A stretch of 64,000 nucleotides of DNA from Verrucomicrobiota bacterium (GTDB lineage: Bacteria > Verrucomicrobiota > Verrucomicrobiia > Limisphaerales > Palsa-1400). Under the pieces are notes generated by a model. It ran no database searches and was not told the DNA's origin. It saw only the letters and a program-made list of their open reading frames with translations. Below are positions 52,578 through 57,672 of this stretch, piece by piece. The DNA lies in assembly GCA_049510745.1 (NCBI GenBank), contig JBEKYR010000003.1, forward strand, positions 160,001 to 224,000, in the 5' to 3' direction. The first letter of the stretch is position 1, and each line of letters opens with the position of its first letter. A program made the translations under genes and the position numbers.

Positions 52578-53828
52578 TTGACATTTGTGAGAGCCACTCA
52601 GAAAGAAGTCTTGGCCATCGCCATTTTCTGCGTCACCTATCTGCTCATCAGCGGGCGGAGCTTGAAGATATTGCCGCTGAACCGGCCCGCGGCAGCGTTG
52701 TTGGGCACGGTCCTGATGGTGGCCTGCGGGGTCGTGACTCCGCAGCAGGCTTATCGATCCGTCGATTATGATACGCTGGTGTTGTTGCTGGGAATGATGC
52801 TCATCAGCGCGTATCTTTTCCTGGCGGGATTTTTCGATTGGGCGGCGCACTGGATTTTGCGGCGCGCCCAAACGCCGCAAGCCCTGCTGCTCTATTTGCT
52901 CCTGGCTTCCGGGGTTCTCTCGGCCTTGCTGGTCAACGACGCCGTTTGTCTCATGCTCACTCCCCTGGTGGTGGCGGTGATCGTTCGTGGCAAACTGCCG
53001 CTGCCGCCCTATCTGCTGGCGTTGGCCATGAGCGCCAACGTCGGCAGCGTGGCGACGCTGGTGGGAAATCCGCAAAACATGATCATCGGCCATCTCTCGA
53101 AAATTCCTTTCGCGCGGTTCTCCGCCTCTCTCTTGCCGGCCGCCGTCGCCGGACTGGTGGTCCAGTACCTCATTCTGCGAATCGGCTTTCGCAAGATACT
53201 TGGCGAAGCTGCCCTTTGCCGACCGGAAGCCGAACCGGCCAAAGTGGATCGCCGGCTTCTGGTGTTGACGTGCGTTGTCCTGGTGCTGGTGTTTGCCGGC
53301 TTCGTCGCGGGCCTCGATTTGTCATGGACGGCGCTGGGGGGCGGGGTGGTGCTGATGGTGCTGGGCCGGCGCGACACCCACGAGGTGCTCAAGTTGGTGG
53401 ATTGGCACCTGTTGGTTTTTTTCGCCGGGCTGTTCGTCGTCGTGGAGGCGCTCGGCGCCACTGGGTTGCCCGGCCAAATCTATCAGCATTTTCGCGGCGT
53501 CTTTGGAGTTTCCGCCTCGAGTCAGGCCTGGAATCTGGCTTGGTTCTCCGCGCTGGGATCGAACCTCTTCTCGAACGTTCCCTACGTGCTCCTGGCGGGG
53601 AAATGGATGAACAGCTTCGCGCACCCGGACTTGATGTGGAAAGTCATGGCGCTGGCCACGACGTTCGCGGGCAATCTCACCATCCTCGGCTCGGTTGCCA
53701 ACATCATCGTGCTGGAATCGGCCCGCCGGCACGTGCAATTTGGCTTTTGGGACTATGCCCGATACGGCATCCCAGTCACGATCCTGACGACAGTTGTGGG
53801 CCTGTGTGTTCTCCTGTTGCTCGAATAA
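52578..53828 (+). CDS. ArsB/NhaD (ion transporter superfamily) anion permease
   Basis: [48 protein letters not shown]. Confidence 0.88.
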
Positions 53829-53881
53829 ATGGAAACAAACCGGGCCAAAGGCAGAGAATTCGCAACCTCACGCGGTGATTC

Positions 53882-56155
53882 TCAATCGCCCTGACCGAGC
53901 ACGCCGCCCTGGCTGGCATTGCCGACCATCTTCCGGTAGCGCGCCAGCCACCCGGTGAGTTGGCGTTTGACGGGTTGGAAGGCTTTCTTGCGCTCGGCCA
54001 ACTCGGTTTCCGGCACGCCGATGTCAATGCGGCGGTTGGGGAAATCGATGCGGATTCGGTCGCCGGGTTTGAGCAAGCCGATGGGGCCGCCTTCTGCCGC
54101 TTCTGGCGAGACGTGGCCAATACAGGCGCCGGCAGTGCCCCCGCTGAAGCGACCGTCAGTGATGAGGGCGACTTTGTCGCCAAGCCCCATGCCGGCGATG
54201 TAGCTTGTGGGCGAAAGCATTTCCTGCATCCCCGGACCGCCCCGCGGACCTTCATTGCGGATGACAACCACGTCGCCCGCTTTGACTTTCCCGGCCAGGA
54301 CGCCTTCGCAAGCTTCCTCCTGGCTCTCGAAAATCACGCACGGCCCCTCGAAGACAAAGTTCTGGCCGCAATTCTTCTTGAACTCGGCGCTGATGCCGGC
54401 GGTTTTAACGACACTGCCTTCGGGCGCCAGTTGACCGTAAAGAATTGCCAGGCCCCCGTCCGGCGAATAAGCCGTCGCCTGGGTGCGGATGCAGTCATAA
54501 GCGTCGAACCTGAATGCCGAATCGTAAGGAACCAGTCCCGACGGTTGCGCCGCGCTTAAGCGGTCAGGCCGGAATTCCAGGTAGGCCCGGTGAATCTGGC
54601 CGTTTTTGAATTTCGAGACGCGCTGCAAACAGAGCCGTGTCTTGGAGCCGCCTTTGGAGTATTGCCACATGAGGAGCACGGGCGTGCCTTTGAGAGCGGC
54701 CAATTCGGCGCGCACCAGGCCTTTGGCCTCCGCCAGCTTTTGCTCCAACCCCGCGCGAATGGCCTCCCGTCCCCTCAACACAGTCTCCGGCGCAACCACC
54801 ACTTCGGCATCGTCGGTAAAGAGCAGGGACTGTGTTTCGGCGTCGCCCGCGTTCCAAGCTGCGGCTTTGCGCCAAAGCGTGATGGCGTGGCCATCGGCGG
54901 GCAGGAACATCATGGGCTTGGGCGCCAGATTGCCGCTTTCGGTGCGGGCTGCGGGGCCAAGTTTGTCCGCCGGGTCGAGCACGATGGCGGAGGCGCCCGA
55001 GACACGGGCGGCTTTCGCACAAGGCAGGCAACTCTCCGACCGCACATCCCAGTCGTCGATGTTCCCGCCCAGCGTCTTGCCGGTGACGGTCCTGCACGAG
55101 GTGTTCAGGGCCCCGGCCCGTTTCAACTCGCCAAGAATGGTGTGGATGCCGCCGGCACGATGGATGTCTTGCAGGTGGTAGCTCGCAGAGGGTGAGACTT
55201 TGCACAAGCAGGGGACGCGCCGGGAAATGGCGTCGATGCGCGCGATGTCATACGGGATGCCCGCTTCGCGCGCGATGGCCAGCGTGTGCAGAATGGTATT
55301 GGTGGAACCCCCCATCGCGACGTCCAGGCTCAGGGCGTTGTCGAACGCCTCGAGTGTGGCGATGTCGCGCGGCTTCAGGTCCGACTCAACCAGCTTGATA
55401 ATCTGCCGGGCGGCCCAGCGGTAGAGGCTTTCGCGTTCTTTCGATACGGCAAGGATCGTGCCGTTGCCGGGCAAGGCCATGCCGAGCGCCTCGCACAAAC
55501 AGTTCATCGAGTTGGCGGTGAACATGCCCGAGCAGGAACCGCAGGTCGGGCAGGCGCTCTGTTCGAGCTTCTTCAAGTCCGCTTCGGTGATTTTGCCGGT
55601 CTGCAACTGGCCGACTCCTTGAAAGACAGAGATGAGATCCGATGTTTTCGCCGCGGGTTGCAGATGCGCCGGAAGCTCGCCCTGCCCGGCGGCAGCTTCC
55701 GCGATGCCCGCAGCCATCGGCCCGCCGCTGACAAAAATGGCCGGGATGTTCACGCGCATGGCGCCCATCAACATGCCGGGGACGATCTTGTCGCAGTTCG
55801 GGATGCAAACCATCCCATCGAAACAATGCGCCATGACCATGGATTCGACGCAATCGGCAATGAGTTCGCGCGAGGGCAGCGAATACTTCATGCCGCCGTG
55901 GCCCATGGCGATCCCGTCATCAATGCCGATCGTGTTAAAGATGAACGGCACGCCCCCCGCCTCACGCACCAGGCGCTTCACCAACATGCCAACTTCGTTC
56001 AGGTGGGCGTGGCCGGGGATGCAATCGGTGTAGCTGTTGCAGATGGCGATGAACGGCTTGTTGAAGTCCTCTTCTGACTCGATGGAGCCGGTGGCCCGCA
56101 GCAGGCTGCGATGCGGCGCGCGTTCGGCGCCTTTTTTAATCATGTCAGAGCGCAT
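53882..56155 (-). CDS. ilvD: Dihydroxy-acid dehydratase with an internal SnoaL/NTF2-like insertion
   Basis: [58 protein letters not shown]; 757 aa from ATG 56155. Confidence 0.95.
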
Positions 56156-56209
56156 AGTGTTTTCATTTTGCGTGGGAAGGGGAAATCTCCCGTCCACGCA
56201 GTCGTGTTG

Positions 56210-56274
56210 GTAGGAGTTATCAGCTCGGAAATACTCCGGCGGTTTTCCCTTGCAGGATGGCAAACTCCATTGCC
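56210..56274 (-). ncRNA. Fluoride riboswitch (crcB RNA motif)
   Basis: Minus strand GGCAAUGGAGUUUGCC-AUCCUGCAAGGGA-AAACCGCCGGAGUAUUUCCGAGCUGAUAACUCCUAC: P1 GGCA/UGCC, conserved AUG, AACCGC..GCUGAU, pseudoknot GGAGUU/AACUCC, terminal UAC. Confidence 0.9.
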
Positions 56275-56455
56275 GATGGATCGCGCTCTCAATACAGGTT
56301 CTCGAAATCATTGGCAAGCGATTTCAGGGCGTTTTCAGGGTTGGATTTTTCATCCGTTTTTGGGCGTGATTACTCTGCACGATTTGTTGCGGGCGCAAGT
56401 CGAGAAGGCGGGCGGATAGCAAACCACCGGTGTTTTTTGACGCGCCCGGACCCGT

Positions 56456-57661
56456 TCAATCCCAAGGGATCATCGGCACGGTCGCGCCGGCGGCAAGGGT
56501 GGTCTTCGGGGGAATATCCACCAACCCGCTGGCCCGCGCCATCGCGCTGAGGAGGTGGGAGGATTGACCGCCGGCGGAGCGGATCGCGCCAAGGGCGTCG
56601 AGCGTGACGCGCGCAAACTGGCGCCGTTCGCCGGGATTGGCCAGCGGTTCGGACAACGTCGCCGGAATCGTCCTTGGGAACACATCGCGCGCGCCCTGCA
56701 TCCGCAGCAACGCCGGCCGCGCCAGCAGGAAGAAAGTGACCAGCGCGGAGGCGGGATTGCCCGGCAACCCGAAGAACAGCTTGTCCTTCCATCGCCCGAA
56801 AGCAAACGGTTTGCCCGGCCTCATCGCCACGGTCCAGAAATCCAGCCCCCCGCCGATGGCGGTGAAGGCCGCCTTGACCCAATCCATTTCGCCGACCGAC
56901 ACTCCGCCAGTGGTGATGACCAGGTCGCATTGCGCCAGCGCCCCTTCCAAGGCCGATTGGGTCGCGGCCAGATCATCCGGCGCCAGGGGATAAAGGGTGG
57001 GAACGGCGCCGGCCTGTTGCGCCAGGGCGGCCAGGCCGGCGCGATTGCTTTCGTAGATCGTGCCCGGAGCCAGGGGCTGGCCCGCTTCGCGCAATTCGTT
57101 TCCGGTCGCCAGCAACCCCGCCGTCGGACGCCGCCCGGCGCGCACGGAGGAAATTCCCGCCGCCGCCAGCAAGCTCAGGCGCGCGGCCGTCAGTTTTTCG
57201 CCGGCCTCCACCAGCCGCGCCCCGGCTTTCACATCCCCGCCGCGGAATCGGACGTTCTCCCACGGGGCGGCGCGCTGGGCAAAGAGCGCGCGCGCCGGGT
57301 CTTGCGCGTTCAGCCGGACCTCCTCCTGCATGACGACGGCGTCCGCGCCGGGCGGGAGGATCGAGCCGGTGAACACCCGCGCGCACGTCCCCGCCTCCAC
57401 GCATTTGTCAAATATAACCCCGGCGGGCGCGGCGCCAATGACCCGCAACGCCACGGGCGAGTCCGCCGACGCGGAGACCAAATCCGCCGCCCGCACCGCG
57501 TAACCGTCCATGGCGGAATTGTCGGCGGGCGGCAGGTCCACCGTGGAGAGCAGAGGCTCGGCGACGAAGCGGCCCAGCCCCTCGCGCAGCTCGACCGTTT
57601 CAAAGGGCAGGGGTTGGACGGCGGCCAGAATCTGCTCGCGGGCTTGCTCCAGGCTCAACAT
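56456..57661 (-). CDS. moeA: Molybdopterin molybdotransferase
   Basis: DNSAMDGYA, PPGADAVVMQE, TGNEL, TTGGVSVGE, MRPGKP, GLPGNPAS. Confidence 0.95.
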   Translation of the reverse strand: MLSLEQAREQILAAVQPLPFETVELREGLGRFVAEPLLSTVDLPPADNSAMDGYAVRAADLVSASADSPVALRVIGAAPAGVIFDKCVEAGTCARVFTGSILPPGADAVVMQEEVRLNAQDPARALFAQRAAPWENVRFRGGDVKAGARLVEAGEKLTAARLSLLAAAGISSVRAGRRPTAGLLATGNELREAGQPLAPGTIYESNRAGLAALAQQAGAVPTLYPLAPDDLAATQSALEGALAQCDLVITTGGVSVGEMDWVKAAFTAIGGGLDFWTVAMRPGKPFAFGRWKDKLFFGLPGNPASALVTFFLLARPALLRMQGARDVFPRTIPATLSEPLANPGERRQFARVTLDALGAIRSAGGQSSHLLSAMARASGLVDIPPKTTLAAGATVPMIPWD

Positions 57662-57672
57662 TCTCAATCCCC

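Follow-up and report, generated by a model that had tools for sequence, protein, structure and literature searches.

Why should ilvD, the gene for the dihydroxy-acid dehydratase (DHAD) of branched-chain amino acid (BCAA) synthesis, be preceded by an RNA that looks like a fluoride sensor? The question is raised by a stretch of DNA from a bacterium of the phylum Verrucomicrobiota (assembly GCA_049510745.1, contig JBEKYR010000003.1, positions 160,001 to 224,000), in which a fluoride riboswitch aptamer of the crcB motif lies directly upstream of ilvD. We refer to this whole stretch of 64 kb as the window; all coordinates given below are window positions, and the aptamer, ilvD and the upstream gene moeA are all on the minus strand. 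The fluoride riboswitch (crcB motif RNA, Rfam RF01734) was reportedly described in 2012, by Baker and co-workers, in the leaders of crcB and eriC-F. Here, we find that the aptamer and its place before ilvD are genuine, and that the 5′ leader of the only DHAD gene of this species carries what is, by prediction, a bona fide fluoride-binding aptamer.

The source genome of the window, hereafter G000, is a bin with 85 contigs and a completeness of 94%. It was compared with a set of 31 genomes of its bacterial family, a sample of 401 genomes of its order and a sample of 151 genomes of its phylum. The set of fluoride riboswitches of the family comprises 25 units, namely the ilvD unit of G000 and 24 others.

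A complete fluoride riboswitch aptamer precedes ilvD

An Rfam cmscan of the whole window returned a single match above the gathering score, RF01734 (Fluoride), at 56283-56204 on the minus strand, with 43.5 bits against a cut-off of 34 (E = 9.2e-09) and with model positions 1-64 of 64 covered; a whole-genome search with RF01734 gave the ilvD aptamer the same score. A previous reading of this DNA, made from the letters alone (the sequence-only reading), had proposed a complete crcB-motif RNA at 56274-56210 (-) and had suggested the Rfam fluoride covariance model as a check on it. The match to that model is significant and runs over its full length, and all the elements named in the sequence-only reading can be recognised. 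P1 is formed by GGCA and UGCC (56274-56259), which enclose the loop AUGGAGUU; an extra GNRA-capped hairpin, UCCU-GCAA-GGGA, follows at 56257-56246, and then AACCGCC. P3 is at 56240-56223 and is followed by GCUGAU. The two pseudoknot strands, GGAGUU (56268-56263) and AACUCC (56218-56213), are complementary throughout, UAC comes next, and the tail reads AACUCCUAC.

Considering the columns conserved in at least 90% of the 24 other riboswitches of the family, the G000 aptamer keeps 37 of 39. Both changes lie outside the core, and one of them is a paired change in P3, where a U-A pair in the family has become G-C in G000, so that the pairing is kept through a two-sided change. The helices are also supported by covariation in the family alignment, in which 94.7% of the cells are paired and the observed values were reached by none of 500 shuffles. 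In its completeness the ilvD aptamer resembles the fluoride riboswitches of the crcB/eriC-F type, with P1, P3, the pseudoknot and all the core nucleotides in place. It differs from known fluoride riboswitches in the downstream gene, since ilvD is outside the known set of fluoride-response genes, and in the expression platform, in which no clear terminator and no masked ribosome-binding site can be recognised.

The extra hairpin between P1 and AACCGCC distinguishes the family units from the RF01734 model, and the Rfam alignment counts it as an insertion. It is found in all the family units, and in an alignment of the 25 units together with the leader of a second genome, G008, two-sided changes occur in 6 of its 6 pairs (columns 27-46). 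Among the other aptamers of the family, the one nearest to that of G000 is linked to enolase in the genome G023; the two are 82% identical and have the same short GCAA hairpin.

Most family units drive crcB-DUF190, and a second copy of RF01734 in the G000 genome likewise precedes crcB-DUF190. The cargo of the family units also includes a CPA2 antiporter with Usp, CLC, enolase, pyruvate kinase and a metallophosphoesterase. Enolase directly follows the riboswitch in G023 (L190, C22) and comes after crcB-DUF190 in G025 (L090, C138), pyruvate kinase is right after crcB in G026 (L182, C446), and another cargo locus of the family is L179 (G007:C1). In the G023 locus, about 70-100 nucleotides (nt) after the aptamer and before enolase, a short frame reads MHIPHD and then a stop, which resembles the DUF190 starts of the family (MHLPHD.., MQIPHD..). 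This suggests that a deletion of crcB-DUF190 fused the switch to enolase in G023, a possible parallel for the history of the ilvD leader.

The junction between the leader and ilvD

The ilvD gene (53882..56155, minus strand) has its ATG at 56155, and the frame is open to the stop at 53884-53882. The distance from the aptamer to the ATG is 48 nt from the end of the Rfam match and 54 nt from the narrower end at 56210; the 54 nt of the sequence-only reading are correct for the latter. Upstream of the aptamer there is a promoter-like element (56289..56317, minus strand) composed of TTGCCA (56317-56312), a spacer of 17 nt and TATTGA (56294-56289), which had been read before as a possible promoter. 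This sequence is indeed present, but a scan of 53700-56700 with the sigma-70 consensus called no promoter site, so that it is the comparison with the family that carries the promoter reading: in 16 of the 25 family riboswitch units, that of G000 included, P1 is preceded by a CTTGC or TTGC[AC]A motif at a distance of 35-49 nt. Further upstream on the same strand lies moeA (56456..57667, minus strand; Pfam MoeA_N, MoCF_biosynth and MoeA_C), whose stop is 172 nt before the aptamer, and no terminator-like site was called on the minus strand between moeA and the aptamer. A frame of eight codons at 56166-56140 (-) overlaps the ilvD start (AUG AAA ACA CUA UGC GCU CUG ACA UGA); it has no ribosome-binding site, its AUG is missing in G008, and it is probably meaningless.

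A riboswitch in front of an unexpected gene, in a bin as fragmented as this one and in a family where the long ilvD described below is patchy, might be the product of mis-assembly or binning. However, the junction is covered by contigs of four public peat runs from four studies with 0 differences, namely X6 (56032-56581), X7 (56032-56343), X9 (56032-56419) and X10 (56084-56235 and 56208-56420). The aptamer and the start of ilvD are covered by all four runs, and X6 is the only contig to continue past the moeA stop (56456). We count these independent contigs, one of which runs into the end of moeA, as a refutation of an artefact; moreover, G008 carries a homologous leader joined to its own ilvD. 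That the two elements were joined artificially is therefore an idea to which we attach practically no weight. The leader is invariant in all four runs, which consequently offer no population-level test of selection. The stretch is present in 14 DNA runs, 13 labelled as peat and one as wetland, and RNA runs contain only about 5-6% of the words sampled from it.

ilvD is the only DHAD gene found in the genome and carries an NTF2-like insertion

The product of ilvD, a protein of 757 amino acids (aa), matches TIGR00110 with 765.4 bits against 618.15, as two segments on either side of an insertion, and NF009103 with 737 bits against 710; Pfam assigns ILVD_EDD_N to aa 33-364 and ILV_EDD_C to aa 554-750. 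The protein belongs to the same equivalog families as the DHAD of the Escherichia coli type (NF009103 / PRK12448, a profile of 616 aa), with which it shares the PNCDK motif and a second motif, both of which we take to have a role in cluster binding. It differs from the E. coli type in the insertion between the N- and C-terminal domains, and this large insertion bears out the description of the enzyme as atypical in the sequence-only reading.

The insertion (54542..55057, minus strand) comprises about 172 aa, approximately aa 367-538, lies in frame between the two IlvD domains and appears as a gap when the protein is aligned to the 576-aa IlvD of the family. It matches Pfam SnoaL_2 (PF12680) with 23.8 bits, under the cut-off of 27, and PF12680 is a precomputed label on many close homologues. 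An AlphaFold2 model of aa 360-565 (30 sequences) had a mean predicted local distance difference test score (pLDDT) of 82.2 and a predicted template-modelling (TM) score, pTM, of 0.78, with pLDDT above 90 over most of the model residues 70-180 and elements in the order helix-helix-strand-helix-four strands. Foldseek gave 420 matches to this model at E ≤ 0.001, including 1tuh (Bal32a) at E = 7e-7, and the ketosteroid isomerase matches had target-normalised TM-scores of 0.64-0.70. The insertion is thus modelled as an NTF2-like domain (SnoaL / ketosteroid-isomerase-like) with an alpha+beta cone fold.

Whole-genome protein and TIGR00110 searches of G000 found no second IlvD. The only other gene of the IlvD/EDD family in this genome, on contig 37, encodes a xylonate dehydratase of the YjhG/YagF type (TIGR03432, 1124 bits). 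This gene (G000:C37, L005 1231-3255, plus strand) is divergent from a fumarylacetoacetate-hydrolase-like gene, and the two are likely a pentonate catabolic pair. Since ilvC is located elsewhere in the G000 genome, the branched-chain pathway is predicted to exist, with this ilvD as the only candidate for its dehydratase.

A competing hairpin overlaps the pseudoknot strand

Two hairpins are predicted between the aptamer and the start codon. In hairpin T1 (56187..56216, minus strand), the outer pairing joins CUCCU (56216-12) to GGGAG (56191-87), the inner stem is formed by CACG and CGUG, and the hairpin is followed by AUUUCCCCUU (56186-56177). For the nascent RNA ending at 56177, T1 is the fold of lowest energy (-9.6 to -10.2 kcal/mol). 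There is no U-tract after it, the run reading AUUUCCCC. CUCC belongs to both T1 and the pseudoknot, so that T1 and the fluoride-bound fold compete. Hairpin B (56169..56200, minus strand) is formed by UGCGUGG and CCACGCA with an inner GGGA/UCCC stem and also has no U-tract behind it; it is present in minimum-energy folds at -14 to -17 kcal/mol and is more stable than T1. T1 can hence coexist neither with the pseudoknot on its one side nor with hairpin B on the other. This three-way exclusion is a switch architecture, but its parts are weak.

In many of the family units CUCCUACC pairs with GGCAGGAG, six or seven U's follow and then the AUG, an arrangement that reads as a terminator which would also hide the ribosome-binding site. 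The energies of the family tail hairpins, from -10 to -34 kcal/mol, are rough, as folding often ran past the first hairpin. By comparison, T1 looks like a weakened copy of the family terminator. A long-range helix between AGAGCGC (56289-56283) and the start-codon region, which appeared in a first fold, was rejected, because it involves positions at or before the likely transcription start and is absent both from the G008 leader and from folds starting at 56283.

The leader of G008 is homologous but worn

The ilvD of G008 is 89% identical to that of G000. Its contig extends for 172 nt upstream of the gene, and these nucleotides align to the G000 leader at 77% identity. The G008 leader retains TTGCCA-17-TATTCA, the small GCAA hairpin and hairpin B, the last being kept through a two-sided change from GCGUGG/CCACGC to GCGCGG/CCGCGC. 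The core of the aptamer is mutated: AAU of the P1 loop has become -GC, GAU has become GAC, and both AACCGCC and the pseudoknot strand have changed as well. Of the family-conserved columns, 32 of 39 are matched in G008 (7 differ) versus the 37 of G000, and Rfam finds no riboswitch in the G008 leader even at E ≤ 1. By our reading, the T1 pairing appears weakened in this leader too. The pattern fits a scenario in which the aptamer and T1 would have been one functional unit that G000 still keeps.

Distribution of the long-form ilvD and of its pairing with a riboswitch

The long form of ilvD, with the insertion, occurs in 96 of the 401 sampled genomes of the order and in 5 of the 31 family genomes (G000, G024, G029, G008 and G001). 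Most other members of the family have the canonical IlvD of 576 aa (TIGR00110, 762 bits), and G029 has both forms; with the query used, the long form was the only IlvD seen in G000, G024, G008 and G001. Long (about 755 aa) and short (576 aa) IlvD swap patchily even within one genus, for instance when compared with G025, which suggests displacement by transfer or, in some bins, mis-binned contigs. The DNA upstream of the long-form loci of G024, G029, G001 and L094 is mutually unrelated, and contigs from peat runs that belong to diverged relatives align to the coding region but no further upstream than 56155. These observations fit a gene that would have moved between contexts, with the riboswitch cassette acquired in the ancestor of the G000 and G008 loci.

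Riboswitches upstream of the long form were searched for in 84 other genomes, 80 by an RF01734 scan and the remaining four (G024, G029, G008 and G001) by the family scan and a permissive Rfam scan; twelve genomes in which the ilvD matches were partial or split only were excluded from this check. A motif check of the 400 nt upstream of 20 long-form ilvD genes found nothing, and no riboswitch was found at L006 (full-length long form), L036 (partial, long form) or L007 (longer than the short form). A scan of a genome collection kept 80 loci, mostly of short-form ilvD of other phyla. RF01734 itself is present in 16 of the 151 genomes of the phylum sample.

Three riboswitches near ilvD were considered and set aside. 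That of G111 lies 4.5 kb upstream of ilvD on the same strand and drives a CPA2 antiporter and Usp, with unrelated genes in between; that of G526 is 2.6 kb from ilvD in divergent orientation. In G024, which is of the same genus as G000, the order on the minus strand of L086 (C110, 1675-5145) is ilvD, about 290 nt, riboswitch, crcB and DUF190, so that the riboswitch lies after ilvD and serves crcB. The pairing of a riboswitch with ilvD is confined to one species among the genomes searched, a survey in which close relatives are thinly represented and in which the homologues with 87-92% identity are covered as proteins only.

Discussion

In the part of a 2024 review that was accessible to us (PMC11139923), the genes associated with the riboswitch are exporters, Na+/H+ antiporters, pyrophosphatase, haloacid dehalogenase-like genes, enolase and formate hydrogen lyase; ilvD is not among them, and the word 'dehydratase' is absent from the text that was accessible. 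According to the same portion of that source, fluoride enters mainly by permeation of hydrogen fluoride, and enolase is often under riboswitch control (PMC11139923). In one paper that names both the fluoride riboswitch and branched-chain amino acids (PMC7266159), the link to the latter belongs, in the part that was accessible, to ykkC RNAs and not to fluoride. Our literature search, with the original 2012 gene table outside its range, found no link between a fluoride riboswitch and ilvD or dihydroxy-acid dehydratase. The opinion of the sequence-only reading that ilvD is not a commonly reported target hence agrees with the searchable literature, in which no report names it. The nearest comparison is the riboswitch-controlled enolase (PMC11139923, as far as accessible): both enolase and DHAD are central Mg2+-dependent enzymes behind a fluoride switch. 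Fluoride inhibition, however, is documented for enolase, no evidence of it was found for DHAD in the literature searched, and the link to enolase recurs widely whereas that to ilvD is confined to the one species.

We tentatively propose that a promoter-plus-riboswitch cassette was captured and acts as a leaky, fluoride-inducible ON switch for ilvD, a reading to which we would give just short of an even chance. Capture of the leader, as a cassette, probably dates from the arrival of the long-form ilvD at the locus. Without fluoride, CUCCU in the tail of the aptamer would pair with GGGAG to form T1, a weakened terminator followed by AUUUCCCCUU; T1 would leave the C-rich tract behind it single-stranded, which may allow some termination. 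With fluoride, the pseudoknot would hold CUCC, T1 would be blocked and hairpin B would form. Since T1 is weak and its U-tract is broken, most transcripts would be expected to read through in either state, hence a leaky switch. Basal expression of ilvD would then suffice for the synthesis of valine, isoleucine, leucine and pantothenate, and fluoride would add a modest boost. The logic would be that of enolase, with more of a Mg2+-dependent enzyme being made when fluoride impairs it. The design of the cassette argues for such a function, because it is that of the bona fide family units, with the -35-like CTTGC motif and a T1 that overlaps the pseudoknot strand at the position of the family terminators. 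The intact aptamer, the independently covered junction, the status of ilvD as the only DHAD gene found, the pattern of changes in the G008 leader, the enolase link of the nearest aptamer and the peat habitat speak for it as well.

Several results weigh against a working switch. T1 has only -9.6 kcal/mol and three U's behind it; hairpin B is favoured whatever the state of the aptamer, and no fold pairs the start-codon region; GGGAG is 30 nt before the AUG and so cannot serve as a masked ribosome-binding site. When G000 and G008 are compared, the aptamer differs at 17 of 67 positions, the upstream flank at 14 of 55 and the platform at 13 of 53, so there is no extra conservation of the aptamer, and with divergence this even the contrast lies only in where the changes fell. 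The decay of the aptamer in G008 means that the link is dispensable there. None of the 84 other long-form genomes has a detectable riboswitch directly upstream of ilvD, nor do any of the four long-form loci among the 78 metagenome loci kept, and in none of the 15 other riboswitch-bearing genomes of the phylum sample does the riboswitch directly precede ilvD. When 158 diverse ilvD loci were scanned with a loose motif, which recovered 24 of 25 positive controls, three matches without P1 flanks came up, none of them credible when judged by eye rather than by covariance model. Finally, our literature search found no report that DHAD is sensitive to fluoride.

Such results bring into view another explanation, namely that the cassette was captured for its promoter and that the aptamer, which may still bind fluoride, is a passenger on an ilvD that is in effect constitutive, the platform having lost any power to terminate or mask. 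We regard this as the main rival, somewhat less probable than the leaky switch. It would account for the degenerate state of T1 (-9.6 kcal/mol, then AUUUCCCC) in comparison with the tail hairpin, U7 and AUG of G010 and G006, for a hairpin B and an open start region that do not depend on the state of the aptamer, and for a G008 leader that keeps the promoter-like hexamers and hairpin B as its aptamer decays. The unrelated upstream DNA at G024, G029, G001 and L094 would likewise suggest a gene that adopts whatever promoter is present, and a sole housekeeping gene could hardly afford a tight fluoride-dependent ON switch. What fits it less well is the condition of the G000 leader: a neutral relic of equal age should by now have decayed to some extent, and yet the G000 aptamer has no core change where G008 has seven changes at conserved columns, and T1 has kept both its pairing and its overlap with the pseudoknot strand. 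The sequence-only reading had gone in a different direction, proposing a possibly fluoride-tolerant IlvD isozyme, marked by its insertion and induced by fluoride in order to rescue BCAA synthesis. The enzyme is atypical and does stand behind a real fluoride aptamer, but there is no ordinary IlvD in this 94%-complete genome for it to back up, the other family member being the xylonate dehydratase, and G024, G008 and G001 likewise have the long form only, with the query used. The insertion is spread through the order (96 of 401), its NTF2-like domain has no known link to fluoride, and, since the long form lacks an upstream riboswitch in 84 of the 84 other genomes, nothing ties the insertion to fluoride. 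A fluoride-tolerant isozyme is for these reasons very improbable.

Beyond the leaky cassette itself, the wider proposition that DHAD is a physiologically relevant target of fluoride, and that this bacterium, in acidic peat with its ready entry of HF into cells, senses fluoride on its sole ilvD mRNA and raises enzyme output in compensation, is in our view unlikely; if it were true, the synthesis of branched-chain amino acids and pantothenate would join the fluoride response. The NTF2-like domain nested in IlvD, found in about a quarter of the sampled genomes of the order, represents an uncharacterised variant of the enzyme. If the switch fails, the locus would be a dated natural example of the capture of a riboswitch cassette by a new gene and of its subsequent decay, intact in G000 and worn in G008, with the promoter-like element and the downstream hairpin kept in both. 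If the switch works, it would mark DHAD, a Mg2+/Fe-S enzyme, as fluoride-sensitive and would widen the fluoride response beyond exporters, pH control and glycolysis.

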